From Alphaproteobacteria bacterium (GTDB taxonomy: Bacteria > Pseudomonadota > Alphaproteobacteria > UBA6615), in NCBI GenBank assembly GCA_965205535.1, contig CBDBHH010000005.1:2317773-2381772 (forward strand): 64,000 nt of DNA, given 5' to 3'. Position 1 is the first letter of the stretch. Every line of letters starts with the position of its first letter. This document shows, piece by piece, positions 1 through 52,533 of this stretch. The notes beneath the pieces are model-generated. The model did no database searches and was not told the DNA's origin. It saw nothing but the letters and a program-made list of their open reading frames with translations. Both the position numbers and the translations under genes were made by a program.

Positions 1-2083
1 CGCGTGCCTCGTCCGGTGTCTCCATGAGCGCGCCGGCCGCCATGGCCGCCTTGCGGTCGACGGGGACGGGGTCGGGCGTATCGGGCGGCGGCATCATGTT
101 GGCGTGGTAATAGGCCATGCGCTGCTTGGCCGGATCGACCTTGCGTGACGGGTCGATCTCGCGCTGGTTGACCCCCTTGGGCGCGACCGTGCGGTCGCCG
201 ACCACTTCATGATCGAACCACCATTTCTTTTTCAGATTACGCCTGCCGTTGCCCAGCGCGTCGTCCAGCCAGGTCGCGATCGGTACCATGATCGGTTTCA
301 GGAACAGGGCGTTGACCCCCATCCAGCTCGCCAGGCGGGTGAGCAGGGCGCCGTCGGTATCGACCACCTTGTTGATGGGACAGGTCTTCATGCAGCGCCC
401 ACAGGCCGACCCGTGCGGATTGGTGACACGGTAGCGCGCGCAACGTTCGGCGTCCGGCTTCCAGATCTCGTAGCCGTTGAACATTACCTTGTCGCCGAAC
501 GGGATGGCGTCGCATGGGCATTCGCGCGCGCATTTAAGGCAGTTGTTGCAGAAGGTCTGGAGCCCGAAATCGATCGGCTTGTCGGCCTCGAGTGGTATGT
601 CCGTGGTCAGCACGACGGATTTGAAGCGCGGCCCGACAAACGGGTTCAACACCAGCTCACCAATTCGGCTCATTTCGCCCAACCCCGCGAGCAGAACCAG
701 GGGGATCTGCAATACGTCGCTGTCGGCGTTGGTCTGGGCGCGGGCGGGAAACCCCAACTGGCCGAGCATGTGAGACATCACGCCGGCGATCTCCGCCCCG
801 CGCTGGTAACCGCGCATCGACTGACTGCCGGAAATCCAGTCGTCGCCGCTGGCGCCTTCCATCGTGTCGAAGCCCTGGTCGATCAGCATCACCACGGCAT
901 ATTTGTGATACATCTCGATTTCAGTGCCGTCATCCTTGTGGGAATACCAGGCATAGCGGGGGATCTCGCAAATGCCTGTCAGGTCGGCCCCCAGAAAGTA
1001 GGACAGCGACTTCAGTGCCTTGCTGTTCTGTGCCGCGTCGGAATATTTCGACATATCCGGCGCGGTTGTCGGGTTGCCATCCTGATGGGGCACCATGGCG
1101 CGGATCAAAGACACCATCGAGCGGGCGAGCGGGTGCTTCGTGGCAAACCGGGCGCGTTCGCGTTGGGCCTTGTCGCCGAGATCGCCCTGGAGGGCACGCT
1201 CAAAAAACGCCGCCCGCTTTGGCACCCGCGGGACTTCGTCATCGAGAATAAGCGTCGTGGGCCGATCAATGCGTTTGACCGTTTCCATCGGGTAGCGGCT
1301 GGCATGTGACGGGCGTCCTGCGCGGCGGTTTCGTTCGCGGCCGGACTGGGCGTCGTTGATGCCCCACCAGTAGCGCAGGCCCTTGGCATTCATCGCCTTC
1401 GCGGCCAGGGGGCGGTCGCATTCAAGCTGATAGCTGGTCGAGATGACGGCGAAGGTGAAGTTCTCGATATACGGGTTGGCGAGGCTGTCATCGTCGTTGC
1501 GGATGGCGATACCGGCCAGCACGGCGAGGCGGTCTTCGTCGAGCATCCGGTCGCCGGGAACGTCGGCGCGTGCGTCATAGCCCATCAGCCGGATATGGCC
1601 TGCAATATTGACGGCGATCTCGGTGGCCCGCATTTCGGCCGTCTCGACCACCGCGGGTTTTGTCCACTCCGCCGAGAGCGGCTCATCATCGGGCACGCGG
1701 CTATGTTCGACCATGATGACGATCGCGTGGCTGTGGGGCAGGGGCGTCGTGCCGGTTCGCCACGCGCTTTCGGGGATCAGGCAAATACCGGCCTGGCTTG
1801 CATCCAGGAAATAAGCCGCGCCCATGATGTCGACCGTGCAGCGTTTCACATCATCGGTATCGGGGGCGGTCTCGGGCGCAACATCACCGACCGCGAATTG
1901 CGCAAACATGTCGCGGAAGTTGCGCGTGACTTCGCCGAGCAGCGGCGACGCCGGGCGATCATCGGCCGGTGGGGCGGGCGGTCGTGATATTTCAAGTGTC
2001 CCGAGAGAGTCGTCTCGAGGCAACGTTTCCAGGGGAAACGAACCCAGATGAAACGGCCGATTTCCGTTCTTCAGCAGGTGCAT
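1..2083 (-). CDS. reductive dehalogenase-like protein (RdhA family, corrinoid plus two [4Fe-4S]); C-terminus runs off the window start
   Basis: Hand translation of the minus strand gives an open frame from ATG at 2083-2081 (in-frame TGA at 2098-2096) to position 1 with no stop. The C-terminal part contains FCNNCLKCARECPCDAIPF (CxxCxxCxxxCP, plus coords ~520-470) and CARYRVTNPHGSACGRCMKTCP (C-x11-CxxCxxxCP, ~455-385), the two-cluster arrangement typical of RdhA. The N-terminus has no twin-arginine motif. It is absent from the ORF track because no stop lies inside the window. Confidence 0.6.
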   Translation of the reverse strand, partial: MHLLKNGNRPFHLGSFPLETLPRDDSLGTLEISRPPAPPADDRPASPLLGEVTRNFRDMFAQFAVGDVAPETAPDTDDVKRCTVDIMGAAYFLDASQAGICLIPESAWRTGTTPLPHSHAIVIMVEHSRVPDDEPLSAEWTKPAVVETAEMRATEIAVNIAGHIRLMGYDARADVPGDRMLDEDRLAVLAGIAIRNDDDSLANPYIENFTFAVISTSYQLECDRPLAAKAMNAKGLRYWWGINDAQSGRERNRRAGRPSHASRYPMETVKRIDRPTTLILDDEVPRVPKRAAFFERALQGDLGDKAQRERARFATKHPLARSMVSLIRAMVPHQDGNPTTAPDMSKYSDAAQNSKALKSLSYFLGADLTGICEIPRYAWYSHKDDGTEIEMYHKYAVVMLIDQGFDTMEGASGDDWISGSQSMRGYQRGAEIAGVMSHMLGQLGFPARAQTNADSDVLQIPLVLLAGLGEMSRIGELVLNPFVGPRFKSVVLTTDIPLEADKPIDFGLQTFCNNCLKCARECPCDAIPFGDKVMFNGYEIWKPDAERCARYRVTNPHGSACGRCMKTCPINKVVDTDGALLTRLASWMGVNALFLKPIMVPIATWLDDALGNGRRNLKKKWWFDHEVVGDRTVAPKGVNQREIDPSRKVDPAKQRMAYYHANMMPPPDTPDPVPVDRKAAMAAGALMETPDEAR

Positions 2084-2217
2084 GGAAGGCGTGCCTCAGT
2101 GTCAGGTCGGAAGGGTGCTTCGACGCTCGAAGCGGGACCATTCTCGCGGTGAACGCCCTTAACCACAACCGCCATCGCGCGGCGACAAGTTGGCATGCAG
2201 ATTGCTCTAGAGGGGGT

Positions 2218-2430
2218 ATGAACAATCTATCTCTCATCCGTGGCCGGAATCACGATGTTGCCAATGATGTTGGCCACTCTGATGCGGACCGCGAGGCAAT
2301 GCGCAGCTGGATCACAATGCTGCGAAAGGAAGCCAAGAACCTTCGTTCCGAGGCGCAACACATGCTCGAAGTCGCTGAAGAGGCCGAAACACTGGCCGGC
2401 CGGATCGATTTTCAGCTGAAAAGCCAATAA
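2218..2430 (+). CDS. small hypothetical protein (70 aa), divergent from the rdhA-like gene
   Basis: ATG at 2218 inside ORF 1969..2430 (MNNLSLIRGRNHDV...). It is followed by a hairpin and T-run at 2504-2545. No recognisable domain. Confidence 0.25.
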   Translation: MNNLSLIRGRNHDVANDVGHSDADREAMRSWITMLRKEAKNLRSEAQHMLEVAEEAETLAGRIDFQLKSQ

Positions 2431-2503
2431 ATGCGAGCAACAGGCACGCCGGTTGCATCGTTAGGGGTAGGACACTTGAGTGTATTTGTGTCCTCCTCCC
2501 CCA

Positions 2504-2545
2504 ATAAGGCGGCGTCCAACCTGGTCGCCGCCTTTATTGTTTTCG
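2504..2545 (+). terminator. intrinsic terminator-like hairpin (aaggcggcg-N11-cgccgcctt) followed by tattgttttcg; possibly bidirectional
   Basis: GC stem of 9 bp plus a T-rich tract seen directly; an A-rich tract on the other side could serve the minus-strand Fis-like gene. Confidence 0.4.
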
Positions 2546-2722
2546 GGCCGAAACAGATTAAAACAACAATTAAATCAAATGCTTGATATGAATTATTGGT
2601 CTCGATCAGCGCTACGAACCGACCTCTGCGGGTGCGCCGCCATTGTGTCTTCGCGGTCGCAGTTTGAGACACGAAATCGCATTGTGAAACGTGATACCGC
2701 AGTCAAAATGCGAGGCGAAAGC

Positions 2723-2914
2723 CTAGTCTGCGTCGACGGCCGGGTCGGTTTCGTCCCATTTAGCGCGCTTGCGGTAGAGCGTGGCGGGCGAGACTTCCAG
2801 ATACGTCGCCGCCATACGCACATTGCCATCGCACAACTCGATCGCGCGCTCGATGGCGTCGCGCTCCATATCCTCCAACGGCCGAATGTCATCCGGCACA
2901 TTGTCCGTCGTCAT
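2723..2914 (-). CDS. small Fis-family (HTH_8) DNA-binding protein, 63 aa
   Basis: ERDAIERAIELCDGNVRMAATYLEVSPATLYRKRAKW matches the Fis/NtrC C-terminal helix-turn-helix. The start codon lies 7 bp from the IS3 element end. Confidence 0.6.
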   Translation of the reverse strand: MTTDNVPDDIRPLEDMERDAIERAIELCDGNVRMAATYLEVSPATLYRKRAKWDETDPAVDAD

Positions 2915-2974
2915 ATAAAATGGGACATCAGAGTGGTTTGAGCATTGGAGTCTCTGGCTCGTTTGTGTGATTGA

Positions 2975-3955
2975 TTATGCGGCTTGTTTCTGATGTTGCA
3001 AGCGGCGTTGTTTGATTGTGTTTTTCTTAATCTTTTCCCTTTCTCTGAGAATTGCTTTGTCGCGGCCGAAGTAGACGTCGACTGGTGTGACGTTGTTCAG
3101 GCTCTCGTGGTAGCGCCGGTTGTTGTAGTATTCGACGAAGGCCCCGATCTGGCGTTCAAGATCGCCTGGCAGATAGTAATTCTCCAGCAGAACCCGGTTC
3201 TTCATGGTCTGGTGCCAGCGTTCGATTTTGCCTTGGGTTTGTGGGTGGAACGGCGCGCCGCGAACATGCGTCATTTTTTGATCCTCCAACCAGTTGGCCA
3301 GATCGCCGGAGATGTAGCATGAACCGTTGTCGCTGAGCAGACGTGGCTTGTGACGCACAACCGCCTGGTCGCAACCAGACGCCGTCAGCGCCAGCTCGAT
3401 CGTGTCTGTCACGTCCTCAGCACGCATGTTGGTGCAAAGCTTCCACGCAATGATGTAGCGGCTGTAATCATCGAGGATCGTGCTCAGATAATACCAGCCC
3501 CAGCCAATGATCTTGAAGTAGGTGAAGTCTGTTTGCCACATCTCGTTGATGGCCGTGGTTTTGTCGGTGAACTCGTCGGCAGCTTTGATCACCATGTAGT
3601 CTGGCGCGGTGATGAGGTCAGCTGCTTTGAGAATGCGATAAGCTGATGATTCAGAGACAAAATACCGCCTCTCATCCGTGTATTTGACCGCCAGTTCCCG
3701 TGTGGTCAGCGCCTCATGTTCCAGCGCGAACTCGATCAGGTCATCACGACGAGCATCAGGGATGCGGTTCCAGACCGATCCTGGGCGTGGGGATTTGTCA
3801 GCCAGTCCATCCAGGCCGCCGTCAATATAGAGATCATACCATCGGTAGAATGTCGTGCGTGGGATGCCCAGCATGTCGAGGGTTTGTTTCACCGGCAGAT
3901 GTGATCCCTCAACGGTGCGGATGATCTCCAGTTTCTCAGACGCAGGGTATCTCAT
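2975..3955 (-). CDS. IS3 family transposase OrfB (integrase core, DDE)
   Basis: Protein with WQTDFTY...DNGSCY...QTQGKIERWH motifs typical of IS3 OrfB (rve domain); expressed as an OrfAB fusion by -1 frameshifting. Confidence 0.9.
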   Translation of the reverse strand: MRYPASEKLEIIRTVEGSHLPVKQTLDMLGIPRTTFYRWYDLYIDGGLDGLADKSPRPGSVWNRIPDARRDDLIEFALEHEALTTRELAVKYTDERRYFVSESSAYRILKAADLITAPDYMVIKAADEFTDKTTAINEMWQTDFTYFKIIGWGWYYLSTILDDYSRYIIAWKLCTNMRAEDVTDTIELALTASGCDQAVVRHKPRLLSDNGSCYISGDLANWLEDQKMTHVRGAPFHPQTQGKIERWHQTMKNRVLLENYYLPGDLERQIGAFVEYYNNRRYHESLNNVTPVDVYFGRDKAILREREKIKKNTIKQRRLQHQKQAA

Positions 3956-4326
3956 TCCTCGAACTCCCCAGCCCCTGTCATGCTTTTTTTGAGCAGACGG
4001 TTCTCAAGGGTGAGATCGGCAACGCATTCCTTTAATGCCAGCGACTCCGAGCGCAGATCCTTCACTTCGGGCGGCGTAGCCTGCCGTGCCGTGTCACCAG
4101 ATAACCGGCGCTTGCCAGCTTCGAGAAATTCCTTGGACCAGCTATAATACAGGCTCTCGGCAATCCCCTCGCGGCGGCACAGCACCGAGATGCTTTCCTC
4201 GCCACGCAGGCCCGCCAAGACGATGCGGATTTTCTCTTCAGCTGAATAGGTTTGCCGCGTCTTGCGGCGGATGTTCTTAACCACCTTGCCGGCGGCGTCT
4301 TTCGATGTCTGGGGCTTCTTCGTCAT
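3952..4326 (-). CDS. IS3 family transposase OrfA (HTH)
   Basis: RRKTRQTYSAEEKIRIV...LKKS pattern of IS3 OrfA; ends at the AAAAAAG slippery site. Confidence 0.9.
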   Translation of the reverse strand: MTKKPQTSKDAAGKVVKNIRRKTRQTYSAEEKIRIVLAGLRGEESISVLCRREGIAESLYYSWSKEFLEAGKRRLSGDTARQATPPEVKDLRSESLALKECVADLTLENRLLKKSMTGAGEFEE

Positions 4327-4480
4327 CTCGATCTCCTAATCGATAAGATGAACCAGAAATCCTCCGTTATTCAAATCCTCAATTCTGTCCCACGGGTGCT
4401 GACGTCAGACAGGGATACATGCTACAGGTGTCGCAGTCGCCTACCAAAGGCCAAAATCGTCAGTATAGGGGGGGCATCGC

Positions 4481-5101
4481 ATGACCGAGTCCAGTCTGAG
4501 GCGCTACACAAACCTTTCTGCCACGCTTCATATTTTGCAGGACAGGAGTCTCACGCTGCTCAGCCCAAGTAGTTGGGATGATAGAAATGACGCTTATTAT
4601 CTGACCGAGTATCAAAGAAGAGTCCATGCGCAGTCTGTGCTCGCTCTTTGTTTTGCAGAAGCACCCGAGACCTACCACCATTGGCGGGTGTTTTCGTCCG
4701 GCTCTGGTGGCGTATGTTTGGAGTTTGATAAAGCCAAGGTCGAAAAGTGTGTTCAGGACGATGGTCGGTTTACATGCAGATCAGTTGATTACAGGACGAT
4801 TGATGCTGCCGCGACAAAGGGTTTTGAGACAGATCAACTGCCATTTGTTAAGCGGTTTCCTTACTCGGATGAGAAAGAATTTCGCATAATCTTTGTTGAC
4901 AAGGATGATGGCAAAAATATTCAGCGGATGGAAATCTCTCTAAATGCAATCAGACGCATAACGCTCAGCCCTTGGATGCCAAGACCCCTCGCAGATGCAG
5001 TGAAATCGACGTTGAAAGGTATAAAAGGGTGCCAACACTTGAAAGTTTATCGCTCCACTCTTGTCGATAATGAACGTTGGAAAAACGCTGTTAATCAATA
5101 A
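4481..5101 (+). CDS. hypothetical protein (206 aa) in a low-GC module
   Basis: ORF with G-rich RBS (ggggggg) upstream; visibly AT-richer than flanking DNA; no confidently recognised domain. Confidence 0.5.
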   Translation: MTESSLRRYTNLSATLHILQDRSLTLLSPSSWDDRNDAYYLTEYQRRVHAQSVLALCFAEAPETYHHWRVFSSGSGGVCLEFDKAKVEKCVQDDGRFTCRSVDYRTIDAAATKGFETDQLPFVKRFPYSDEKEFRIIFVDKDDGKNIQRMEISLNAIRRITLSPWMPRPLADAVKSTLKGIKGCQHLKVYRSTLVDNERWKNAVNQ

Positions 5102-5310: not shown

Positions 5311-6387
5311 ATGGATGAGATTCCCCATACACCGAGAACGGTTTTTGTAGATACAGGCGAATACCGGTCGAAGAATTTTCATTTCGGCAACCCGGCTTTG
5401 TCGGCATTAAAATCGCATGCAAAAGAAAGAAGGGTCAGACTAATTTCGACCTCAATCACCGAAATGGAAATTCGGCGAAAAATTGCTGAATCGGTGAAAG
5501 ACGGCCTATCAAAATTATCCGGCGCTCAGGCGAATCTCGCATCTCTCCGAGATGTGCCTTCCGATGTTTATACCTTCACGCGGATCAAATTTTCTGAAGC
5601 CGGGTTGATTAGAAAAGTACATGAACTCTATGAAGCTTATTTCCGTGATTGCTCCGGAACCGTTCTGGATGCTTTTCAATGTGATGCCGAAAGCATTTTT
5701 AACGACTACTTCCACGTAAAGCCGCCCTTCAAGGAAGGCAAAAAATCAAAAGAATTTCCGGACGCTTTCGTAATGGCGACGTTGAAAGAATGGAGCGAAA
5801 CTAACGGACAAAAGCTGCACGTGATTAGCACCGACGGCGATATCAAGGCGTTCTGCGAGGTGACAGATCAGCTAATACATTTTCCGTCAACCGAAGCCTA
5901 TGTGAACTTTTTGTTTGTTGGCGAGGATATAGCCAGCGCGGAAACGCTAACCGCCTTTAACAGGATGAAACCCAAAATTGAGAAACGAATTATCGACTGG
6001 GTTCCCAACAATTTTGGCGACCTCGGCTTTGTAATCGAAGACCAGTATGACGGTGAGGTTTCTAATGTTGATGTACACGATACGGCCATCGTTGATTGGT
6101 ATGTATTGGATGTAAGCGATGACCATGTTCATGCCGAGGTGAAGTTAGAAGTGGAATTTGAAGCGGAATTTTCGTATCCCGACTACGACACTGCCTCATA
6201 CGATAGTGAGGATAAGGTGCTCATACCATGGCGCGACATTTCAGGCTCCAAGTTGACGACAACTACCGTGATGGCCGAACTTCACTACAAGGTAGATCAC
6301 AAAAAACCTGAAAACTCTGCAATCGAATCTCTGCAGTTGCCGACCCTATCAACTATCGAGATTGATGTCGGAGACGAAGGCCTGTAG
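5311..6387 (+). CDS. PIN-like domain protein (DUF4935-like N-terminus), 358 aa, acidic C-terminal half
   Basis: The N-terminus TVFVDTGEYRSKNFHFGN...RLISTSITEMEI resembles PIN-like/DUF4935 openings. Low-GC context. Family assignment is from memory and not verified. Confidence 0.45.
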   Translation: MDEIPHTPRTVFVDTGEYRSKNFHFGNPALSALKSHAKERRVRLISTSITEMEIRRKIAESVKDGLSKLSGAQANLASLRDVPSDVYTFTRIKFSEAGLIRKVHELYEAYFRDCSGTVLDAFQCDAESIFNDYFHVKPPFKEGKKSKEFPDAFVMATLKEWSETNGQKLHVISTDGDIKAFCEVTDQLIHFPSTEAYVNFLFVGEDIASAETLTAFNRMKPKIEKRIIDWVPNNFGDLGFVIEDQYDGEVSNVDVHDTAIVDWYVLDVSDDHVHAEVKLEVEFEAEFSYPDYDTASYDSEDKVLIPWRDISGSKLTTTTVMAELHYKVDHKKPENSAIESLQLPTLSTIEIDVGDEGL

Positions 6388-6554: not shown

Positions 6555-7238
6555 TCACGCGGCGTCCGCAGCGTCGCGGGCGCGGGCGTTGAGGTCGTCG
6601 AAATCATCGGGCCAGTTGTCGGCGAGCCAACGCAGATAGGTCTTTATGTTCGCCGGGTCGATGCGCACGGAGCCCCGGATCTTGTCCACCTCGGGCTGCG
6701 CCTCGATCGGCAGCTTCAGGGAATCGTTGAAGCGGTTGATCATGTTGAACATCGCGCAGATCAGTGTCAGCTCGATGATCTCGGCTGAATCAAACTGCGC
6801 CTCTACGCGCTCGAACACGTCGTCGCGCGCAGCGGCGGTGTTCTTGGTCATGTGTTCGGCCCACTCGATGGCGGCGCGTTCGCGCGCGTCAAACAAGTCA
6901 GATGTCAGGTAGTCGTCGGACGAGATGGCAATCACCTGGTCGTGTGAGATGCCGGCCGCCTCACCGAGTGCGGTGTTGTGGGCGTAGCAATATTCGCAGC
7001 CGTTGACGTGGCTGGTCTTGATGATGACCATTTCCTTGAGCTTCGATGACAGGTGCACGCCCGGCCACTCGCGCTGGTTAGCAGCCTGGAAGGGCAGGTA
7101 CAGCATCGCCAGGTAGGGTGCATGCGCCATCGTGCGATAGGCGTTCGGGACCCGGCCGACGAGGCCCGTGACCGCGTCATAGAAATGCTTGAGCTCGTCC
7201 GGGGCATTCTCGGGATTGATGTTCGGTACGCGCGACAT
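6555..7238 (-). CDS. carboxymuconolactone decarboxylase family protein (AhpD-like, CxxC)
   Basis: HVNGCEYCYAHN motif and 227 aa length; strong RBS AGGAGAGAAAGC before the ATG. Confidence 0.8.
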   Translation of the reverse strand: MSRVPNINPENAPDELKHFYDAVTGLVGRVPNAYRTMAHAPYLAMLYLPFQAANQREWPGVHLSSKLKEMVIIKTSHVNGCEYCYAHNTALGEAAGISHDQVIAISSDDYLTSDLFDARERAAIEWAEHMTKNTAAARDDVFERVEAQFDSAEIIELTLICAMFNMINRFNDSLKLPIEAQPEVDKIRGSVRIDPANIKTYLRWLADNWPDDFDDLNARARDAADAA

Positions 7239-7255: not shown

Positions 7256-8242
7256 CTAGTCGTCCGCCCAGCGTTTGGTGTCATTCCAACTCCGCTTGGG
7301 CTCGGTAAACTCAGTCGGTGGATTGTTCATCTGTATGAACTGTTCCACAAGGGCAGATACGGTCTCCGGCGCATCTTCCTGAAGATAATGCCCGACGCCC
7401 GGCAGGGAAATAAGCGGTCCGTTGGGCCAGAAGCTCTTGAAGCGGAACTTCACCCAGTGGGGCGGCATGGCCCGGTCTTCCTCGCCGACGATGCACATCG
7501 CGGGGATGGTCTTGAGCACATTGATGTCGTGGGTCTCAGCCATTTCATTGAAAAAGCCGAACGTGTCCGGGTTGGCGATCGCCCGCGGGAAGGCCAGCGC
7601 GCCGCGGCAGGATTCGACGGTCGGGAAGGGGCCGGAGAAGGCGCGGACCCAGGTCTCGTCGACATGATTGGTATTCTCGAAGCCGACACGCTTCATGACC
7701 GACAGGATGGTCGAGCCGAGATGGGACAGGGTCGGCTCGAACTCGTGGGTCTGGGTCCAGTTGAACCATTTGTGGTGTTCGGTCGGGAAGGTGGCGTCCA
7801 TCGGCTCGTCGGACCAGGGCGCGTAGGTGTTGCAGATCGCCAGGCATTTGACCCGGTCGGGGTGGCGCAGCGCAAAGCTGATGCCGATTGAGCCGCCCCA
7901 ATCCTGCATGATGAAGGTGATGTTGCGTACATCCAGATCGAGCAGCAGCCGCTCCAGATTGTCGGCGTGATCGCGGATCGAGTAGTCGCGGTCCTGTGGC
8001 GTTTCGCTTTTCCCGAAGCCCATATGGTCCGGCACGATGACCCTGCCGACCTTGCTTAACCGGGGGATGAAGTTCCGGTAGAGGTAGCCCCAGGTCGGTT
8101 CCCCATGGAGGGGGATGATGACGTCATCCGCGCCATCGGGCGCGTTGTTCACATCGACATAGTGCTGGCGAAAGCCATTGCCCTCGAAAAAATGCGGCGC
8201 GTACGGCCAGGTGCCGTCGAATGTCTCGTCTGCCGGTATCAT
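7256..8242 (-). CDS. dhlA: haloalkane dehalogenase, HLD-I (DhlA-like) alpha/beta hydrolase
   Basis: LHGEPTWGYLYRN...HMGFGKSE...QDWGGSIG (Asp nucleophile and Trp) closely parallel Xanthobacter DhlA. Start reassigned to MIPADETF with RBS GGAGAA, since the track ORF is over-extended to 8356. Confidence 0.8.
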   Translation of the reverse strand: MIPADETFDGTWPYAPHFFEGNGFRQHYVDVNNAPDGADDVIIPLHGEPTWGYLYRNFIPRLSKVGRVIVPDHMGFGKSETPQDRDYSIRDHADNLERLLLDLDVRNITFIMQDWGGSIGISFALRHPDRVKCLAICNTYAPWSDEPMDATFPTEHHKWFNWTQTHEFEPTLSHLGSTILSVMKRVGFENTNHVDETWVRAFSGPFPTVESCRGALAFPRAIANPDTFGFFNEMAETHDINVLKTIPAMCIVGEEDRAMPPHWVKFRFKSFWPNGPLISLPGVGHYLQEDAPETVSALVEQFIQMNNPPTEFTEPKRSWNDTKRWADD

Positions 8243-8420
8243 GATGTTCTCCCTTATTGGCATACAGCCTAACAATGGCCGGAACCGTCGAACTATGGAT
8301 AAGTTCCGCGTCTCAATGCCTGAGCGCAATCCATTCTGCCCACACGGCCCTGACAATCGTCGCCAGACAGCCTATTTTCAGGGGCACCTATTCGTTTGAC
8401 CTCACGTCGGAGCCTCCGCA

Positions 8421-9404
8421 ATGCCCACCATCGATATCCATACCCACATGTTCGGCGACGGCTGGCTCGACATGATCAAGAAGCATGGCGCGCCCGCCTA
8501 TGAGATTGCCGATATGGAAGACCGGCGCAACTATCTGGTCGAATACGGCACGCCGGCCTGCGCCCTGGAGGTCGAGGCGTTCGACTATGACAAGCGTGTA
8601 GAGATGATGGACCGGCTGGGCATCGACATCTCCATCGTCTCGCTGACCTCGCCCAATGTGCATTTCGGCGACGAGGCGATCAGCGTGGCCACCGCGCGCC
8701 TGGCGAATGACGAGATGGCCGCCGGGCAGACGGCGCACCCCGACCGCATCCGCTGGTTTGCGTCCCTGCCATGGGAGTACCCCGATGCCGCCATTGCCGA
8801 GCTCGACCGCTGCATCGCGCTGGGCGCTGTCGGCGTCATGTGCGTGGCCCATATCGGCCAGCGGCACCTGATCGATCCGCTGTTCGCGCCGGTCTGGGAC
8901 GCGCTGAACAAGCGCGCGTTCCCGGTGCTCATCCATCCGACCGCGCCGCTGGGGGCCAAGGACGTCAACTTCGGCTTCGAGCGCATCCTGATGCCGGCGG
9001 CAGGCTTCATGTATGACACCACGATCGCGCTCGCGCGGATGGCCATCGACGGCTTCTTCGAGCGCTATTCGGACATCAAGATGATCGCCAGCCATGGCGG
9101 CGGCTATCTTCCGTTCGTGAATGGTCGCGTGGATATGTTCTTCGGCGTCGAGACCCTGGCGAAGTTCGATATTCCCAAGCTGCCGAGTGACTATTTCAGC
9201 CAGCTCTATTATGACGCCATCGTCTACGATCCGGCGGCGCTGCAGCTGGTGATCGATATCGCCGGCCCCGAAAAGGTGATGTTCGGCACCGACCTGCCGA
9301 TGCCGGCGGATGTCCCCAAGCTCTACGACCTCGTGGATGGCCGCCCCGCGGACGAAATCGCGGCGATTCGCGGTGACAACGCGGTCCGGGTATTCGGGCT
9401 ATAG
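8421..9404 (+). CDS. amidohydrolase 2 family protein (ACMSD/2-pyrone-4,6-dicarboxylate hydrolase-like)
   Basis: MPTIDIHTHMF...; PF04909-type metal-binding HxH start and length of 327 aa. Confidence 0.8.
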   Translation: MPTIDIHTHMFGDGWLDMIKKHGAPAYEIADMEDRRNYLVEYGTPACALEVEAFDYDKRVEMMDRLGIDISIVSLTSPNVHFGDEAISVATARLANDEMAAGQTAHPDRIRWFASLPWEYPDAAIAELDRCIALGAVGVMCVAHIGQRHLIDPLFAPVWDALNKRAFPVLIHPTAPLGAKDVNFGFERILMPAAGFMYDTTIALARMAIDGFFERYSDIKMIASHGGGYLPFVNGRVDMFFGVETLAKFDIPKLPSDYFSQLYYDAIVYDPAALQLVIDIAGPEKVMFGTDLPMPADVPKLYDLVDGRPADEIAAIRGDNAVRVFGL

Positions 9405-23045: not shown

Positions 23046-23924
23046 ATGACCTGGACAGACAAGAAGTTTGCCGACGTCAACGGCCGCCGTATGGCCTATG
23101 TGGAAACCGGCGACCTCGATGGCGATCCCATCCTGTTTCTGCACGGCAATCCCACGTCCAGCTATCTCTGGCGTAACATCATCCCCTATGCCGAGGGCCT
23201 CGGGCGCTGTCTTGCGCCCGACCTCATCGGCATGGGGGATTCCGAGAAACTTCCCGATAGCGGGCCGGACCGGTACCGCTTCGTCGAGCATCGCGAATAT
23301 CTCGACGCGCTGCTCGACCAGCTTGGCGTGAACGCCAATGTCACCCTGGTGATTCACGACTGGGGGAGCGGGCTCGGATTCGACTGGGCAAACCGCAATC
23401 GTGATGCGGTTAAGGGCATCGCGTACATGGAAGCCATGGTCAAACCGCGCAGTTGGGAGGATTTCCCGGAGCGTGCGCGGCCAGCCTTCCAGGCGATGCG
23501 TTCGCCCAAAGGCGACGAGATGGTGCTCGAGAACAACTTCTTCGTCGAGACGATGTTGCCGGGGTCGATCCTGCGGGACCTGACCCAGACGGAGCATGAC
23601 GAGTATCGCCGGCCATTCACCGAGCCCGGCGAGGCCCGTCGTCCTACCCTGACCTGGCCGCGCCAGCTTCCCATTGATGGCGAGCCGGCCGATGTCACGC
23701 AGATCATGGAAGACTATGCCGAATGGCTTTCGACGTCCGAGGTACCGAAACTGTTCGTAGACGCCAGTCCCGGTGCGATTCTCAGTGATGGTCCGAGCCG
23801 GGATTTCTGTCGAACATGGCCGAACCAGACCGAGGTCCAGGTCAAGGGATCTCATTTCATCCAGGAAGATTCACCCGACGAGATCGGCCAGGCGCTTGCC
23901 GATTGGCTGAAGGCTATCGGCTAG
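23046..23924 (+). CDS. dhaA: haloalkane dehalogenase, HLD-II (DhaA/LinB-like)
   Basis: LHGNPTSSYLWRNIIP, DLIGMGDS, IHDWGSGLGF, IAYMEAM and a C-terminal HFIQED-like His region match DhaA/LinB almost motif-for-motif; 292 aa. Confidence 0.9.
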   Translation: MTWTDKKFADVNGRRMAYVETGDLDGDPILFLHGNPTSSYLWRNIIPYAEGLGRCLAPDLIGMGDSEKLPDSGPDRYRFVEHREYLDALLDQLGVNANVTLVIHDWGSGLGFDWANRNRDAVKGIAYMEAMVKPRSWEDFPERARPAFQAMRSPKGDEMVLENNFFVETMLPGSILRDLTQTEHDEYRRPFTEPGEARRPTLTWPRQLPIDGEPADVTQIMEDYAEWLSTSEVPKLFVDASPGAILSDGPSRDFCRTWPNQTEVQVKGSHFIQEDSPDEIGQALADWLKAIG

Positions 23925-41085: not shown

Positions 41086-43857
41086 TTACTCCGCGGCACT
41101 CCTGGCGCCGGCTTCCACCTTCGCTGCGCAGAATTTGAACTCGGGGATTTTGCCGACCGGGTCCAGTTGCGGGTTTGTCAGCAGGTTGGCTGCCGCTTCG
41201 GCGAAGCAGAAGGGAATGAACACCATGCCCTCGGGCACATCGCGATCCGAACGCGCCGCGATCTCGATGGTGCCGCGCCGGGTCGAGACCTGGATCGGGT
41301 CGCCGGGCCAGACATCGAGGCGCTTCATCTCACGCGGATGGAGCGAGGCCACTGCGGCGGGCTCGAGATGGTCGAGGATTGTCGCGCGCCGGGTGATCGC
41401 ACCGGTGTGCCAATGTTCGAGCAGGCGCCCGGTCGACAGCACCATCGGGTAGTCCGGGTCCGGCAACTCGTCGGGGGGCAGCACTTCGGTCGGCACGAAT
41501 TTGCCGCGGCCGGATTTCGTGGGGAAGCCGTTGGCAAACATGATTTCCGTGCCGGGACCGTCCTCATGGTCACACGGATAGGTCACAGCATCCTCGCGCT
41601 CCAGCCGCTCCCAGCTGATGCCGTCGATCGAGTGCATGGCCTCGCGCAACTCGCCATAGACTTCGGCCGGCCCCTCATAGTTCCAGTCGAGCCCGACACG
41701 TCGTGCGAGTTCCTGGATAATCCACCAATCCTGTCTGGCTTCACCCGGCGCATCCAGGGCGGGGCGGCCGAGCTGGACCTGGCGGTTGGTGTTGGTGACC
41801 GTGCCGGATTTCTCGGGCCAGGCGGACGCGGGCAGGATCACGTCCGCATGAAACGCCGTCTCGGTTAGGAAGATTTCCTGCACCACCAGATGATCGAGGG
41901 CGGCCAGGCCCTGGCGGGCGTGATGCTGGTCCGGGTCCGACATGGCCGGGTTCTCGCCCATCACATACATGGCGCGGATGTCGCCTGCGCGTGCGGCGTC
42001 CACGATCTCGACCACGGTCAGCCCCGGTTCGGGGTTGAGATTCTCGACATCCCACAGCTTTTCGAACTTTGCCTTCGTGTCGGGGTCGGCCAAGCTCTGG
42101 TAGTCGGGATAGACCATCGGGATCAGGCCCGCGTCCGACGCGCCCTGGACGTTGTTCTGGCCCCGTAGCGGGTGCAGGCCGGTGCCGGGGCGGCCCACCT
42201 GGCCGGTCATCAGCGCCAGCGAGATCAGGCAGCGCGCATTGTCGGTGCCGTGGACATGCTGGGAGATGCCCATGCCCCAGAAGATGATCGCCCGCTCGGC
42301 GGTGGCATAGGTGCGGGCAATGGTTTTGATGGTCTCGGCGTCGACGCCGCAGACCTCCGACATGGCCTCGGGCGTGAAGTCGATGAGGGACGCGCGCAGC
42401 GCCTCATAATCTTCCGTATAGCCGGCGATATATTGCTCGTCGGTCAGCTCTTCGGCGACGATCGTGTGCATGATCGCGTTCAAAAGTGCGACGTCCGTTC
42501 CCGGCTTGAACTGCAGGAAGTGATCGGCATGGCGGGTCAGCGCGTAGCCGCGCGGGTCCATGATGATCAGCTTTGCCCCGCGCTTGGCCGCATCCTTGAT
42601 GTAGGTGGCCGCGACCGGGTGGTTTTCCGTCGGCCGTGCGCCGATGACGATGATGCAGTCGGTGTCTTCGGCCGCCGTGAACGGTGCGGTGACCGCACCC
42701 GAGCCGATGGTCTCCATCAGCGCCGCCACGGAACTGGCGTGACACAAACGCGTGCAGTGATCGACATTGTTGGTGTGGAACCCGGCGCGGATCAGTTTCT
42801 GAAACAGATACGCCTCTTCGTTGGAGCCCTTGGCCGAGCCGAACCCGGCGACGGCGTTGCCACCATGGGCGTCACGCACCCGGTTCAGGCCCCCGGCGGC
42901 CACTTCGAGGGCTTCTTCCCAGCTTGCCTCGCGGAAATGGGTCGAGGGGTTGGTCGGGTCGACCTGGTCGTCCCAGCGTTTGCCCACACCGTCCTTGCGG
43001 ATCAGCGGCGTGGTCAGTCGGTGGGGGTGGTGCACATAGTCGAGCCCGAAGCGGCCTTTCACACATAGCCGCTGCTCGTTGGCCGGGCCGTCGCGGCCCT
43101 CGACCTTCTGAATCTTGCCGTCTTTCAGATGATAGGTGATCTGGCAGCCGACCCCGCAGAAGGGGCACACGCTGTCGACCGTCTCGTCCGCCTTCGCCAC
43201 GCCGATACCGGCTTCGTCGACCATGGTCGACGGTAGCAGCGCGCCGGTCGGACAGGCCTGCACGCATTCGCCGCAGGCCACGCAGGTCGACTGGCCCATG
43301 GGATCGTCGAAGTCGAACACGATCTTCGATTCCGCGCCGCGCATGGCCATGCCGATCACATCGTTCGACTGGACCTCGCGGCACGCCCGCACACACAGAT
43401 TGCAATGGATACAGGCGTCGAGATTGACCGCCATGGCCGCGTGGCTGGAATCGGCCTCTGGTGCTGAATCACGTGCGGGAAACCGGCTGGATTCAACATT
43501 CATCCGGTCGGCCCACTGCCAGAACTTGGAATCCCCGTCATGGGCCGTCGCGCGATCCGGCTGATCGGCCGCCAGCATCTCGATGACCATTTCACGGGCC
43601 TTGCTGGCGCGCTCGGCCTCAGTGTCGACCACCATGCCGTCGGTTGGCTGGCGCAGGCATGATGCTGCCAGCACGCGTTCGCCCTCGATATGGACCATGC
43701 AGGCACGGCAATTGCCGTCGGGCCGGTAGCCCGGCTCGGGGGCATAACAGAGATGCGGAATCTCGGTGCCTTCGCGGGCCGCGACCTGCCAGATGGTCTC
43801 ATCGGGCGCGGCGGTGACCTCGCGCCCGTTGAGGGTGAAACGGATCGTGTTGCTCAT
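41086..43857 (-). CDS. fdsA: formate dehydrogenase alpha subunit (NAD-dependent FdsA-type molybdopterin enzyme with N-terminal 2Fe-2S/4Fe-4S domains)
   Basis: 923 aa; N-terminal ferredoxin-like Cys clusters, molybdopterin oxidoreductase domain, and C-terminal molybdopterin dinucleotide-binding domain. Confidence 0.9.
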   Translation of the reverse strand: MSNTIRFTLNGREVTAAPDETIWQVAAREGTEIPHLCYAPEPGYRPDGNCRACMVHIEGERVLAASCLRQPTDGMVVDTEAERASKAREMVIEMLAADQPDRATAHDGDSKFWQWADRMNVESSRFPARDSAPEADSSHAAMAVNLDACIHCNLCVRACREVQSNDVIGMAMRGAESKIVFDFDDPMGQSTCVACGECVQACPTGALLPSTMVDEAGIGVAKADETVDSVCPFCGVGCQITYHLKDGKIQKVEGRDGPANEQRLCVKGRFGLDYVHHPHRLTTPLIRKDGVGKRWDDQVDPTNPSTHFREASWEEALEVAAGGLNRVRDAHGGNAVAGFGSAKGSNEEAYLFQKLIRAGFHTNNVDHCTRLCHASSVAALMETIGSGAVTAPFTAAEDTDCIIVIGARPTENHPVAATYIKDAAKRGAKLIIMDPRGYALTRHADHFLQFKPGTDVALLNAIMHTIVAEELTDEQYIAGYTEDYEALRASLIDFTPEAMSEVCGVDAETIKTIARTYATAERAIIFWGMGISQHVHGTDNARCLISLALMTGQVGRPGTGLHPLRGQNNVQGASDAGLIPMVYPDYQSLADPDTKAKFEKLWDVENLNPEPGLTVVEIVDAARAGDIRAMYVMGENPAMSDPDQHHARQGLAALDHLVVQEIFLTETAFHADVILPASAWPEKSGTVTNTNRQVQLGRPALDAPGEARQDWWIIQELARRVGLDWNYEGPAEVYGELREAMHSIDGISWERLEREDAVTYPCDHEDGPGTEIMFANGFPTKSGRGKFVPTEVLPPDELPDPDYPMVLSTGRLLEHWHTGAITRRATILDHLEPAAVASLHPREMKRLDVWPGDPIQVSTRRGTIEIAARSDRDVPEGMVFIPFCFAEAAANLLTNPQLDPVGKIPEFKFCAAKVEAGARSAAE

Positions 43858-43904
43858 ATCCCGTTTATATCACGCGGGAAGGGCCTGCGCGGAGGTCTGT
43901 TGAG

Positions 43905-44351
43905 CTACCTGATCTCGATCAGTTCGACGTCGAACATCAGCGTGGCGTTCGGCGGAATGACGCCGCCCGCGCCGCGCGCGCCGTAACCGAGCGCGGGGGG
44001 AATGATCAGCGTCCGTTTGCCGCCCGGGCGCATGCCCGCCACGCCTTCATCCCAGCCACCGATCACGCGACCGGCGCCCAGCGGGAAGTTGAAGGGCTGA
44101 TTGCGGTCGACCGAGCTGTCGAACTTGCTGCCCTTCTCACCATCGACATAGAGCCAGCCGGTGTAGTGGACGACCACGTTGTCGCCGGCCTTGGCCGCTT
44201 CGCCGGCGCCTTGGGCGTTGTCGACATAGCGCAGACCGCTGGACGTGGTGATGGTGTCTTGGGCGTTTGAATCGTTGGGCATGATGAAAACCATTGCCGC
44301 GGCCAGAAGCATCGCGGTCAGCAAGTGTTGGAGACGATTTAGGCGTGCCAT
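43905..44351 (-). CDS. FKBP-type peptidyl-prolyl cis-trans isomerase (secreted)
   Basis: Signal peptide then the FKBP domain GDNVVVHYTGWLYVDGEKGSKFDSSVDRNQPFNFPLGAGRVIGGWDEGVAGM; start MARLNRL with RBS GAGG. Confidence 0.8.
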   Translation of the reverse strand: MARLNRLQHLLTAMLLAAAMVFIMPNDSNAQDTITTSSGLRYVDNAQGAGEAAKAGDNVVVHYTGWLYVDGEKGSKFDSSVDRNQPFNFPLGAGRVIGGWDEGVAGMRPGGKRTLIIPPALGYGARGAGGVIPPNATLMFDVELIEIR

Positions 44352-44437
44352 GGGATACCTCTGATTTGAATAGTACGGGACCGGACCAGCACTAGCCCGG
44401 TCCTGCACTCTATCGAAATAAACAGCGCGTGAAGACA

Positions 44438-44881
44438 TCACGCGTTGGCCTGGAGAACACCCCGTTGCACCGCGCTCGTCAGCGCTGGACCTTCATAAAG
44501 TCCCATCGCGTTGGTTTGCGGCAGGAATCCGAACTTTGCGTAGAAATCCTCCTTGCCGAAAACCGACGTCAGGAAAATCCGCTCGAACGGGAGCTTTGCC
44601 AGCAGGCCCTCCATCAGCATCCGACCGACCCCGCAGCCCTGATGCTCTGTGGCGACCACCACATCGAATACCGTTGCGTAATAGACCCCGTCGGATGTCG
44701 CGCGTGCGGCGGCGACGAGTTCGTCGCCCTTATGGACGAAAACCGATGCGTAGCTACTGTGAAAGGCGCGCGCGATATCGAATGCCTTGCGGTCGAACAG
44801 GTTCGCCGCGGCCATGATGTTGGCCAGCGCCCACCAGTCGATGGTCGAGAGTTCGTCGCTTAGTCTGTATTCGCTTTGCAT
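44438..44881 (-). CDS. GNAT family N-acetyltransferase
   Basis: Acetyl-CoA binding motif QGCGVGRMLMEGL; 147 aa. Confidence 0.8.
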   Translation of the reverse strand: MQSEYRLSDELSTIDWWALANIMAAANLFDRKAFDIARAFHSSYASVFVHKGDELVAAARATSDGVYYATVFDVVVATEHQGCGVGRMLMEGLLAKLPFERIFLTSVFGKEDFYAKFGFLPQTNAMGLYEGPALTSAVQRGVLQANA

Positions 44882-44924
44882 GGTTCGGTCCCCGCTCGCT
44901 TGGGTTGTTTGCCGGGTCCACGCA

Positions 44925-44960
44925 CAAAAAAACCGCCGTGCATGTTGCCGGCGGTCCGTT
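44925..44960 (-). terminator. intrinsic terminator downstream of fdsB (hairpin ccgccg-N9-cggcgg plus T7 on the minus strand)
   Basis: aaaaaaaccgccgtgcatgttgccggcgg on the plus strand equals hairpin plus T-run on the minus strand. Confidence 0.55.
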
Positions 44961-45191
44961 GGTCTTCTGTGATGTGATGGGTGCTAAGCCATCGTCCTCA
45001 CAAACACGGAACCGCCCTCGCTCGCGCGTCGCGCGGCAAGTTTCCACATGTAATTCGTCATGGCGGTTCGGTTTGTCATGGCGCGGCTTTTATGCGCGTT
45101 CACGCACCGGGTCAACCCGTGAATGTTGACCGCGCAGGTGTCGCGTAGCATTGAAGAAATGGCGCGGCGACCGGTTCTCGGACGCGCGTCG

Positions 45192-46880
45192 CTAGTCGGT
45201 GAAGTGCTTCAGCACGCTTTCCATGGGGTTGGGGGCAGCCTGGCCGAGCCCGCAGATCGAGGCGTCGCGCATGGTCTGTGACAACTCACCGAGCAGTTCC
45301 GCGTCCCAGTTGTCGGCCTGCATCAGCGTGACGGCCTTCTCACAGCCGACCCGGCAGGGCGTGCACTGGCCGCAGCTCTCATCCTCGAAGAACTGCGTGA
45401 GGTTGAGCGCGACGGCACGGACATCGTCTTCCTGCGAGAGCACGACGACCGCGCCGGACCCGACGAACGCGCCATGTTTCTCGAGCGACCCGAAGGCCAG
45501 CGGCAGGTCGGCCATGGATGCGGGCAGAATGCCGCCCGACGCGCCGCCGGGCAGATAGGCACGAAGTTCGTGGCCGTCGGCCATGCCGTCGCAATATTCT
45601 GCGACCAGTTCGTTGAGGGTAATGCCGTTGGGTGCAATTTTGACGCCCGGTGTCCTGACCCGGCCCGAGACGGAATAGGCCCGCACGCCGGCATGCCCGC
45701 GGCGGCCCTGATCCTTGTACCAATCAACACCGGTTTCCAGGATCTCACGAATCCAGAAGACGGTTTCGACATTGTGCATCAGGGTCGGCTGACCGAAGAC
45801 ACCGTTCTGGGCCACATAGGGTGGCCGGTGGCGGGGCAGGCCGCGCTTGCCCTCGATGGATTCGATGAGGGCGCTTTCCTCGCCACAAATATACGCACCC
45901 GCGCCGCGCCGGAGCTGGATGAAGCCCGGCCCGATGATACCCGCTTCCTCGATGGCCGCGATTTCGCGCCGGAGTATCTCCCGCGCGGCGGGATACTCAT
46001 CACGCGGATATATCCATAGTGATTCCGCATCGACCGCCCAGGCCGCGATCAGCGCGCCTTCAAGAATGGAATGCGGCGAGCGCTCGAGAAAATGCCGGTC
46101 CTTGAAGGTACCCGGTTCGCCTTCGTCGGCGTTGATCACGACCGCGCGTGCGCCATCTTCGGCGCGCACGAAGTCCCATTTGCGCGCCACGGGGAAACCG
46201 GCACCGCCCATGCCGCGCAGGTCTGCTTTTTCAAGGGCGGCGTGTACCTCCTCGTAGGTTCTGTGATCCGAGACGCAAGACTGGAAAATGCCATAGGCGC
46301 CGCGCTTCAAGGCGACATCGAGGGTCTGATAAGGCTCGATACGGGCCTCGGTCTCACCCGCGGAAACGGCCGCGACGACATTCTCCTGGGTGGCGAAGTC
46401 GATGTGCCGATGGCCCACTTCGGCGACGGGTGCATGATCGCAGCGGCCCATGCAAGGCGCACGCACGACGCGCACATCGTCTGCCGTGTCGGCCGCCAAT
46501 GCGGCCAACAACTGGTCCGCGCCGGCCTGCATGCAGGGCAGGCTGTCACACACCCGGATGGTCAGCGCGGGCATATCCACGTCGTCGTCGGTCGCGACGT
46601 CGAAATGGGCGTAGAAGGTCGCGACCTCGTATACCTCGACCAGGGACAGTTTCATCAGCTCGGCCAGTGCCGCCAGATGGCGTGGTGACAGGCCGTTCCA
46701 GGCGTCCTGGATCAGATGCAGATGCTCGATCAGGAAGTCGCGGCGTATTGGTGCATCGCCGAGGAGCGTCTGCACTTCCGCCATTGCGTCGGGATCAACC
46801 TGCCGGCCCTTGGGCAAAGACGGCGCCTTTCGGCGCCCGCTGCCCGGGTGGTGAAAGTCCTGTGGCGTCTGTTCACTCAT
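45192..46880 (-). CDS. fdsB: NAD-dependent formate dehydrogenase beta subunit with fused gamma (NuoE-like plus NuoF-like)
   Basis: N-terminal thioredoxin-like 2Fe-2S NuoE-type region (CDSLPC...CMGRC) followed by the NuoF-type NADH/FMN domain (GGAGFP, GEPGTFKDR) and a C-terminal 4Fe-4S (ESCGQCTPCR). Confidence 0.85.
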   Translation of the reverse strand: MSEQTPQDFHHPGSGRRKAPSLPKGRQVDPDAMAEVQTLLGDAPIRRDFLIEHLHLIQDAWNGLSPRHLAALAELMKLSLVEVYEVATFYAHFDVATDDDVDMPALTIRVCDSLPCMQAGADQLLAALAADTADDVRVVRAPCMGRCDHAPVAEVGHRHIDFATQENVVAAVSAGETEARIEPYQTLDVALKRGAYGIFQSCVSDHRTYEEVHAALEKADLRGMGGAGFPVARKWDFVRAEDGARAVVINADEGEPGTFKDRHFLERSPHSILEGALIAAWAVDAESLWIYPRDEYPAAREILRREIAAIEEAGIIGPGFIQLRRGAGAYICGEESALIESIEGKRGLPRHRPPYVAQNGVFGQPTLMHNVETVFWIREILETGVDWYKDQGRRGHAGVRAYSVSGRVRTPGVKIAPNGITLNELVAEYCDGMADGHELRAYLPGGASGGILPASMADLPLAFGSLEKHGAFVGSGAVVVLSQEDDVRAVALNLTQFFEDESCGQCTPCRVGCEKAVTLMQADNWDAELLGELSQTMRDASICGLGQAAPNPMESVLKHFTD

Positions 46881-47697: not shown

Positions 47698-48414
47698 CTA
47701 GGCGGCTTTCGCCTTGGCCTTCTTCGTTTGGGGTTCTTCGACCGGGTCGCGGAGCACATAGCCGCGCCCCCAGACCGTTTCGATGTAATTTTCGCCGTCG
47801 GTGGCGGTCGACAGCTTCTTGCGCAGCTTGCACACGAACACATCGATGATCTTGAGTTCGGGCTCGTCCATCCCGCCATAAAGGTGGTTCAGGAACATTT
47901 CCTTCGTCAGGGTTGTGCCCTTGCGCAGGCTCAACAGTTCGAGGATGCCATATTCCTTGCCGGTGAGATGAACCGGCTTGCCTTCGACCGACACGGTCCG
48001 GGCGTCGAGGTTCACGTCCATCAGGCCGGTATGGATGACCGAATCTGCATGCCCCTTGGACCGGCGAACGATGGCCTGGACGCGGGCGACCAGCTCACGC
48101 TTGTCGAACGGCTTGGTCAGATAGTCATCGGCGCCGAACCCGAGGCCCTTGATCTTGTTGTCCGGCTCGTTGAGGCCGGAAAGGATCAGGATCGGTGTTT
48201 CAACGCGGGCCTCGCGGAGGCGTCGCAGGACCTCGTAGCCATCCATGTCGGGCAGCATCAGATCCAGGATAATGATGTCGTAGTCGTAGAGTTTGCCGAT
48301 CTCCAGGCCGTCTTCGCCGAGATCGGTGGTGTCGCAAATATACCCCTCGGACTTGAGCATCATCTGGATGCTCTGGGCGGTTGCGGTATCGTCCTCAACT
48401 AATAGAACACGCAT
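47698..48414 (-). CDS. ctrA: cell-cycle response regulator CtrA (OmpR family)
   Basis: [25 protein letters not shown]...[23 protein letters not shown]... near-identical in pattern to Caulobacter CtrA; winged-helix C-terminus. Confidence 0.95.
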
Positions 48415-48462
48415 TCTATCTCTCCGTAGATTGCCCACCCATGTGCCAGGGTGTTCTTCGCC

Positions 48463-48477
48463 TTAATCATCGTTAAC
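48463..48477. promoter_or_regulatory. CtrA box TTAA-N7-TTAA in the ctrA/fliI divergent intergenic region
   Basis: ccTTAAtcatcgtTTAAca matches the CtrA full-site consensus TTAA-N7-TTAA; a half-site TTAAC recurs ~17 bp downstream. Confidence 0.5.
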
Positions 48478-50586: not shown

Positions 50587-50653
50587 GTTGAGCACGTCTC
50601 GCGCGCACTGCGAGGCGCTTGATCCCCGCTGACGAGACCAAACACAGGTAGCG

Positions 50654-52521: not shown

Positions 52522-52533
52522 GGGGTTTTGCTC

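Follow-up and report, generated by a model that had tools for sequence, protein, structure and literature searches.

What kind of enzyme is encoded by the long reading frame that runs off the left end of an alphaproteobacterial DNA segment, next to a disrupted regulatory gene? The segment, here called the window, is a stretch of 64,000 nucleotides from an Alphaproteobacteria bacterium (assembly GCA_965205535.1, contig CBDBHH010000005.1, positions 2,317,773 to 2,381,772), and the frame occupies its first 2083 nucleotides on the minus strand. An initial annotation, made from the letters of the sequence, proposed a cytoplasmic reductive dehalogenase (RdhA) similar to NpRdhA of Nitratireductor pacificus pht-3B. 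RdhAs have been divided into four groups: respiratory enzymes, transmembrane enzymes, and two catabolic subfamilies that are told apart by the presence or absence of a fused phthalate-dioxygenase-reductase-like domain (PMC10463259). We conclude that the gene, rdhA, probably encodes a cytoplasmic, non-respiratory catabolic RdhA of the stand-alone subfamily to which NpRdhA belongs, and that, by homology, the protein should work as NpRdhA does; we put the probability of this reading at about 0.9. The parts of the gene on which the argument draws are as follows.

1..2083, minus strand: rdhA, a partial coding sequence (694 of about 739 codons) starting at ATG 2083, probably for a stand-alone catabolic reductive dehalogenase.
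1184..2083, minus strand: N-terminal region (about residues 1-300), a putative vestigial duplicate of the core that does not bind cobalamin, recognized by homology to NpRdhA 1-300.
569..1126, minus strand: predicted cobalamin-binding core (about residues 320-505), from a match to the NCBIfam model TIGR02486 and residue mapping.
377..550, minus strand: two [4Fe-4S] motifs, with eight cysteines aligned to NpRdhA and a match to Fer4_7.

A sequence search of the PDB returned NpRdhA as the best match to the translated frame (4RAS_A; also 6ZXU and 6ZY0), with an E value of 9.4e-192 over residues 1-694 against 1-690. A global alignment to native NpRdhA, a 698-aa sequence that we read from an N. pacificus locus (L074), gives 50% identity. 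The predicted fold points the same way. An AlphaFold2 model of the window RdhA (mean predicted local distance difference test score, pLDDT, 66.9; predicted template-modelling score 0.70) is confident at residues 10-275 and 316-505, and a Foldseek comparison of this model to the PDB placed NpRdhA chains in all top positions (E about 1e-51, template-modelling (TM) score 0.67, about 697 aligned columns). Pfam models gave weak Fer4 matches only, with Fer4_7 at residues 512-570. The proposed kinship to NpRdhA is thus borne out over the full length of the available frame.

The residues on which cofactor binding and catalysis depend in NpRdhA are retained. Motif 1, CNNCLKCARECP, spans residues 512-523 (window 515..550) and contributes C512, C515, C518 and C522; motif 2, C548-x12-CGRCMKTCP, spans residues 548-569 (window 377..442) and contributes C548 together with C561, C564 and C568. 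All eight iron-sulfur cysteines align with those of NpRdhA. The initial annotation was right that two ferredoxin-type motifs are present in RdhA-like spacing, though the second has an x12 gap, as in NpRdhA, and not x11. Y426, K488, R552 and S422 are kept at residue numbers identical to those of NpRdhA (the first three are encoded at 806..808, 620..622 and 428..430, respectively), and in the alignment to NpRdhA, M423 and the counterparts of F290 and F310 are conserved as well. In NpRdhA, Y426 and K488 form the proton-donor dyad, S422, K488 and R552 hold the phenolic hydroxyl, and A419 lines the pocket for a second halogen (PMC7565698). The active-site residues of the window protein, including its G419, and its eight cysteines are invariant in 30 homologs that are 65-92% identical. 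The core region, whose absence had been raised beforehand as a possible objection to an RdhA assignment, is present, as are the catalytic Tyr/Lys/Arg. A separate observation concerns residues about 580-606 (window 265..346, minus strand; ASWMGVNALFLKPIMVPIATWL), a segment that exceeds the corresponding NpRdhA helix in length, by 8 residues, and in hydrophobicity. Its peak 19-residue hydropathy of 1.39 lies under the transmembrane threshold, and it might play a role in membrane or partner association.

The frame itself has the marks of a real gene. Translation of the minus strand from ATG 2083 proceeds for 694 codons without a stop, down to position 2, in agreement with the earlier claim of a protein of more than 694 residues that is still open at position 1. 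Position 2083 is the first possible start because this frame has stops 5 and 7 codons ahead of it, and the ATG pairs with Met1 of NpRdhA in the alignment. About 45 codons at the 3' end, for a low-complexity tail, fall past the left edge of the window. The closest genomic relative, an alphaproteobacterial metagenome-assembled genome (MAG; locus L003), is 89.7% identical in DNA over window positions 6..2897, and its RdhA, 97% identical in protein sequence, is uninterrupted up to a stop at 739 aa; a second relative (P0001, 92% identical to the window RdhA) is also 739 aa long. Since the closest RdhA relatives (97%, 92% and 80% identical) terminate at 736-739 aa, about 45 codons are missing here and a fused reductase domain is not expected. 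The ortholog tail beyond the window edge (ARAAAG.PAPAHYTPTPPMGAG...NPYAADFKDVKAADAD) is of low complexity and reaches past the C-terminus of NpRdhA. Metagenome contigs were also scanned for a longer copy of the rdhA region, and the best of them (L083) is 76% identical. The 217 nucleotide differences between the window rdhA and its L003 ortholog are split 21/4/192 by codon position, which indicates purifying selection on the frame. Judged by this split and by the match to a solved structure, the frame is far beyond chance, and rdhA reads as an intact gene that is cut solely by the window edge.

The supplied list of open reading frames (ORFs) presents the locus differently, because the tool that made it omits ORFs running off the ends of the source. 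The long minus-strand rdhA frame is unlisted, and the list instead has one antisense ORF.

209..1309, plus strand: antisense 366-aa ORF, judged to be a shadow ORF and not a gene.

In the L003 ortholog this ORF is interrupted by four stops, and it differs from the window at 107 of 367 residues, compared with 18 of 694 for the rdhA frame. Its guanine-plus-cytosine (GC) fractions by codon position (0.80/0.44/0.59) mirror those of the rdhA frame (0.64/0.46/0.79), which has the high third-position value, and it matches no Pfam family. The sequence comparison thus identifies 209..1309 as a shadow of rdhA. The initial annotation had correctly reported that the antisense ORF is the only one listed here, but its warning that an automated caller could mis-annotate the locus does not hold up, as the absence of rdhA from the list is an artefact of the window edge. 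Public assemblies do annotate the orthologs as genes, though the labels are often as vague as 'Fe-S protein' or 'ferredoxin'.

To which RdhA group does the protein belong? The first 60 residues contain no RR pair, and no [ST]RRxF[LIV]K motif for twin-arginine translocation (Tat) is present. No RdhB-like membrane protein is encoded beside rdhA in the window or beside its orthologs, for which the next gene downstream encodes a soluble hydrolase. Both absences had been claimed at the outset and are upheld. A vestigial N-terminal duplicate of the core domain is the mark of catabolic RdhAs (PMC10463259), and the window protein has the homologous region. The 120 closest database proteins are 700-750 aa long, with a single one at 832, and the nearest full-length matches among representatives clustered at 50% identity are stand-alone proteins of 729-737 aa. 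Representatives of 1041-1087 aa, with room for a fused reductase, are just 40-45% identical to the window RdhA. Membership in the stand-alone ('naturally truncated'), NpRdhA-like catabolic clade is thus highly probable, and it is very likely, as read from the orthologs since the gene end lies outside the window, that no reductase is fused. The analysis shows homology, domain layout, conserved cofactor and catalytic residues, the lack of Tat and RdhB and, in orthologs, of a fused reductase, and purifying selection.

Other identities for the protein have to be set against this evidence. QueG and RdhA have the class-III cobalamin fold in common, and public names of some homologs include 'epoxyqueuosine reductase QueG' alongside 'Fe-S protein' and 'ferredoxin', so that a QueG or generic Fe-S protein could be suspected in place of a dehalogenase. 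The PDB match to QueG (5D08) has an E value of 0.06 against 9e-192 for NpRdhA, however, the QueG model TIGR00276 scores 22.1 bits against a cut-off of 200, and Foldseek places QueG at E about 1e-3 with a TM score of 0.15-0.18. Moreover, QueG is only about half as long as the window protein, in which the N-terminal duplicate and the Tyr/Lys/Arg of RdhA catalysis are present. The concern voiced in the initial annotation that the best hits might be to QueG thus finds no footing, and we regard this identity as improbable in the extreme. The same grade applies to an energy-conserving, respiratory RdhA. The cobalamin core and both Fe-S motifs are common to the window protein and respiratory PceA (E 5e-22; the RDH complex 8Q4H follows at 3e-20, both over RdhA residues about 394-621, and Foldseek ranks PceA as a runner-up at about 3e-9). 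The window protein has no Tat signal, however, an RdhB-like neighbour is missing both here and at the orthologs, and a vestigial N-terminal domain is what one typically finds in catabolic, monomeric RdhAs; the probability of a respiratory role is thus next to negligible.

A closer contender is the self-sufficient type represented by BhbA and JtRdhA, in which a phthalate-dioxygenase-reductase-like domain would lie beyond the window edge. No stop ends the frame within the window, most catabolic RdhAs carry the fused domain (PMC10463259), and long representatives do occur in the family. Against this, the 97/92/80% orthologs end at 736-739 aa, with the low-complexity tail starting exactly where the window ends; the 120 closest proteins all fall within 700-832 aa; the fused representatives are distant; and a separate alpha/beta hydrolase gene comes next downstream in L001-L006. 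A fused reductase is accordingly very unlikely. More weight, though still on the unlikely side, goes to a protein with the same fold and cofactors and a diverged substrate or reaction, for example in a pathway that couples ester hydrolysis by the downstream esterase to dehalogenation. The pocket differs at G419, A314 and R310, with G419 invariant in the clade; segment 580-606 and the extra C-terminal tail set the protein apart from NpRdhA; and an esterase-type gene (similar to SABP2, hydroxynitrile lyase and pyrethroid hydrolase) lies directly downstream in six clade loci. Yet the residues that hold the phenolic hydroxyl and donate the proton are all conserved, and the catabolic RdhAs characterized so far all act on ortho-halogenated phenols (PMC10463259).

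Several results weigh against the assignment to the NpRdhA stand-alone subfamily. The true 3' end of rdhA is outside the window. TIGR02486, the NCBIfam model for reductive dehalogenases, matches residues 380-572 of the window fragment at 159.1 bits, 1.2 bits short of its cut-off of 160.35; the full-length 97% ortholog (173.7 bits) and NpRdhA (171.8 bits), run as controls, both exceed it. The Pfam Dehalogenase family (PF13486), proposed beforehand as a check, gives no match to the window RdhA at E<=1. Crystallized NpRdhA and the full-length ortholog are likewise unmatched, and since PF13486 misses NpRdhA itself, this test says nothing on membership in the NpRdhA subfamily. The AlphaFold2 model is poor for residues 507-694 (pLDDT <50), which include the Fe-S and C-terminal parts. 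Relative to NpRdhA, the pocket carries three substitutions (P311 to A, A419 to G and K307 to R), so that the exact substrate may not be the same. The window shows no partner of the ferredoxin or ferredoxin-reductase kind; a six-frame motif scan for ferredoxin genes found only rdhA and a formate dehydrogenase alpha subunit there. An Rfam scan of the whole window had no match, hence no cobalamin riboswitch. Finally, an insertion sequence (IS) element destroyed the neighbouring regulator gene, which makes expression of rdhA here uncertain.

If the protein follows the NpRdhA mechanism, it would act as a monomer, its vestigial N-terminal copy packed against the cobalamin-binding core. NAD(P)H would be the electron source: a separate reductase and a ferredoxin would feed the two [4Fe-4S] clusters, from which base-off cobalamin would receive electrons one at a time. 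As substrate the enzyme would bind a phenolic compound halogenated in the ortho position (3,5-dibromo-4-hydroxybenzoate or a bromophenol, for example), with its hydroxyl held on S422, K488 and R552 and its halogen ligated directly to cobalt; reduction would break the carbon-halogen bond, and Y426 would then protonate the ring carbon. The change of A419 to G would widen the second-halogen pocket, compatible with di-halogenated or larger (iodo) substrates. In this scheme we infer four things: that cobalamin is loaded, what class of substrate is used, what donates the electrons and that the gene is expressed in the source organism.

The region upstream of rdhA bears on how the gene might be controlled, and contains four features.

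2191..2205, plus strand: sigma-54-type -24/-12 element TGGCATGCAGATTGC, between rdhA and the small ORF and pointing away from rdhA.
2149..2430, plus strand: small divergent ORF, 93 codons from GTG 2149 or 70 from ATG 2218.
2726..2902, minus strand: remnant of an NtrC-type sigma-54 activator gene, the last 58 codons plus stop, with a Fis-type helix-turn-helix (HTH_8, E 2e-11).
2902..4412, minus strand: IS3-family element with orfA (3952..4326) and orfB (2975..3955), matching HTH_Tnp_1 and rve.

The sigma-54-type element matches the consensus exactly, where 0.32 such matches are expected per window, and it occurs in the same place in four related loci (L003, L004, L006 as TGGCACAAGACTTGC and L009 as TGGCACGCTGTTTGC) while the flanks have diverged. 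It lies 12 nt upstream of ATG 2218 of the small ORF, with a Shine-Dalgarno-like GAGGGGG in between; this spacing would set the transcription start almost on the ATG and give a leaderless-like transcript. The small ORF is 82% identical to a called 93-aa gene in L001, is also found in L003, L006 and L009, and has no Pfam or NCBIfam match. It is hydrophilic (maximum 19-residue Kyte-Doolittle value 0.19) with no membrane helix, and was rejected as a candidate RdhB on these grounds.

The activator remnant corresponds to the C-terminus of a 486-aa regulator in L001, and homology to L003 stops at window position 2897. No other part of the activator gene occurs in the window, including the far side of the IS element; the only other match is to a 39%-identical paralog (54877..55869), which belongs to another NtrC-type gene at 54820..56187. 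The IS3 element is 84% identical in nucleotide sequence, over 97% of its length, to IS3 transposase elements on plasmids of Hoeflea sp. IMCC20628. The IS3 element has thus truncated the activator gene, which relatives carry upstream of rdhA. A scan of 1900..2950 for sigma-70 promoters and terminators found none. Two conserved blocks upstream of rdhA, GGTTGTGG and GCGAGAAT, fall short of the promoter-scan criteria and may nonetheless constitute the rdhA promoter. In L003 (7900..9500), the activator region presents as several short plus-strand ORFs and a 484-aa minus-strand ORF with an HlyD_3 match, which may reflect assembly indel errors or a shadow ORF.

How widespread are such genes, and do they travel with partners? 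Among 8000 candidates scored, 3146 proteins match at E<=1e-10, and 217 clusters (50% identity) match at E<=1e-30. The nearest relatives are in marine or aquatic Alphaproteobacteria and Rhodospirillaceae MAGs, which agrees with the alphaproteobacterial context named in the initial annotation; further out they extend to Gamma- and Betaproteobacteria. All-against-all clustering of the ORFs at 80 loci revealed no family-wide conserved neighbour (ferredoxin, reductase or transporter), and only shadow ORFs of rdhA recur.

Conserved neighbours do appear within the close clade, where an esterase, Amidohydro_2, orf108 and Rieske set is restricted to L003-L006, L009 and L013. At six clade loci, a 239-aa soluble alpha/beta hydrolase is encoded 50-70 bp downstream of rdhA on the same strand. 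This gene lies outside the window (4558..5277 in L001 and 12260..12976 in L003); its product has the nucleophile motif GASYAG and is closest, among PDB entries, to SABP2, hydroxynitrile lyases and a pyrethroid hydrolase. The hydrolase is a possible operon partner of rdhA. A divergent Amidohydro_2/orf108/Rieske unit follows, with a 121-aa Rieske ferredoxin about 2.5 kb downstream, and nothing links this ferredoxin to the RdhA as a partner. Upstream of rdhA, the close clade has the small divergent ORF and, in L001, L003 and L004, the NtrC-type activator gene.

These arrangements raise the idea that a marine Rhodospirillaceae-like clade carries a distinct module that would first cleave the ester bond of natural halogenated aromatic esters and next dehalogenate the products, a proposal that we consider speculative and quite improbable. 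The module would comprise rdhA and the esterase, the sigma-54 activator, the small ORF driven by sigma-54, the invariant G419 and a separate redox partner, a composition that we hold to be equally doubtful. That the IS3 insertion uncoupled such a module from its regulator in the present genome is a conjecture of the same low standing. The features that are new here, namely the esterase partner, the G419 pocket, segment 580-606, the C-terminal tail and the IS-disrupted regulator, are all clade-specific and only mildly novel.

Several other parts of the window deserve mention. Adjoining the IS element, 4413..~6500 has a low GC content (about 45%, against about 62% around it) and holds two plus-strand ORFs, one with weak DUF2971 similarity (4481..5101) and one matching PIN_12 (5311..6387, E 8e-22). 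This block looks horizontally acquired and is possibly related to defence or toxins. A hydrolytic haloalkane dehalogenase is encoded at 23046..23924 on the plus strand, about 21 kb from rdhA (NF002938, 434 bits against a cut-off of 241). On the minus strand, 7256..8356 encodes a haloalkane-dehalogenase-like alpha/beta hydrolase that matches NF002043 end to end at 157 bits (cut-off 265, so below it); its nucleophile motif, QDWGG, resembles that of DhlA. An AhpD/CMD-family gene (6555..7238) follows it, and its other neighbours include genes for an Amidohydro_2 protein (8421..9404), RidA and a major facilitator superfamily (MFS) transporter. Further along, 41086..46880 (minus strand) encodes the alpha subunit of a formate dehydrogenase that depends on NAD (TIGR01591, 760 bits) and a fused NuoE/NuoF-like subunit. 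A probable flagellar gene cluster, judged by protein N-termini alone, occupies 48000..64000.

The window gene adds one member to a known, characterized and large family. As soluble B12 enzymes that tolerate oxygen, catabolic RdhAs are relevant to bioremediation and to marine bromine and iodine cycling; the present example is one more uncharacterized member, from a pelagic alphaproteobacterial clade, that leaves the current understanding of the family unchanged. It does illustrate that such genes tend to carry just 'Fe-S protein' or 'ferredoxin' names and that PF13486 overlooks the whole subfamily.

A comparison to characterized systems places the window protein closest to NpRdhA (4RAS, 6ZXU/6ZXX/6ZY0/6ZY1). 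The two are collinear over their full length at 50% identity, and they share the N-terminal vestigial domain, the cobalamin core, an identical spacing of the eight cysteines that includes C-x12-CxxCxxxCP, and Y426/K488/R552/S422; both lack Tat, RdhB and a fused reductase, the last being read from orthologs in the present case. They differ in the pocket, where the window protein has A, G and R for P311, A419 and K307, and in the 8 extra residues near 580-606 and the low-complexity C-terminal tail of ~40 aa found in the window clade. Their genomic contexts also differ, as rdhA of the window clade is followed by an esterase-like alpha/beta hydrolase gene near a divergent Amidohydro_2/Rieske-ferredoxin unit.

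BhbA of Comamonas sp. 7D-2 and JtRdhA of Jhaorihella thermophila are self-sufficient catabolic RdhAs that have the same core and vestigial N-domain and are likewise cytoplasmic, oxygen-tolerant and directed at ortho-halophenols (PMC10463259). Orthologs of the window gene, in contrast, terminate near 739 aa, and the identity of its product to fused representatives is just 40-45%. Respiratory RdhAs such as PceA of Sulfurospirillum multivorans (4UQU) and the RDH complex 8Q4H have the cobalamin core and two [4Fe-4S] clusters in common with the window protein, but are dimeric enzymes with a Tat signal, an RdhB anchor and no N-terminal duplicate, whereas the window gene comes without Tat or RdhB. 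QueG (5D08) is another class-III cobalamin enzyme of this superfamily, likewise with a ferredoxin module of two clusters, though its similarity to the window RdhA is marginal by sequence (E 0.06), profile (22 bits against 200) and fold (TM about 0.15). Among these systems, the window gene thus most closely parallels the stand-alone catabolic dehalogenase of N. pacificus.

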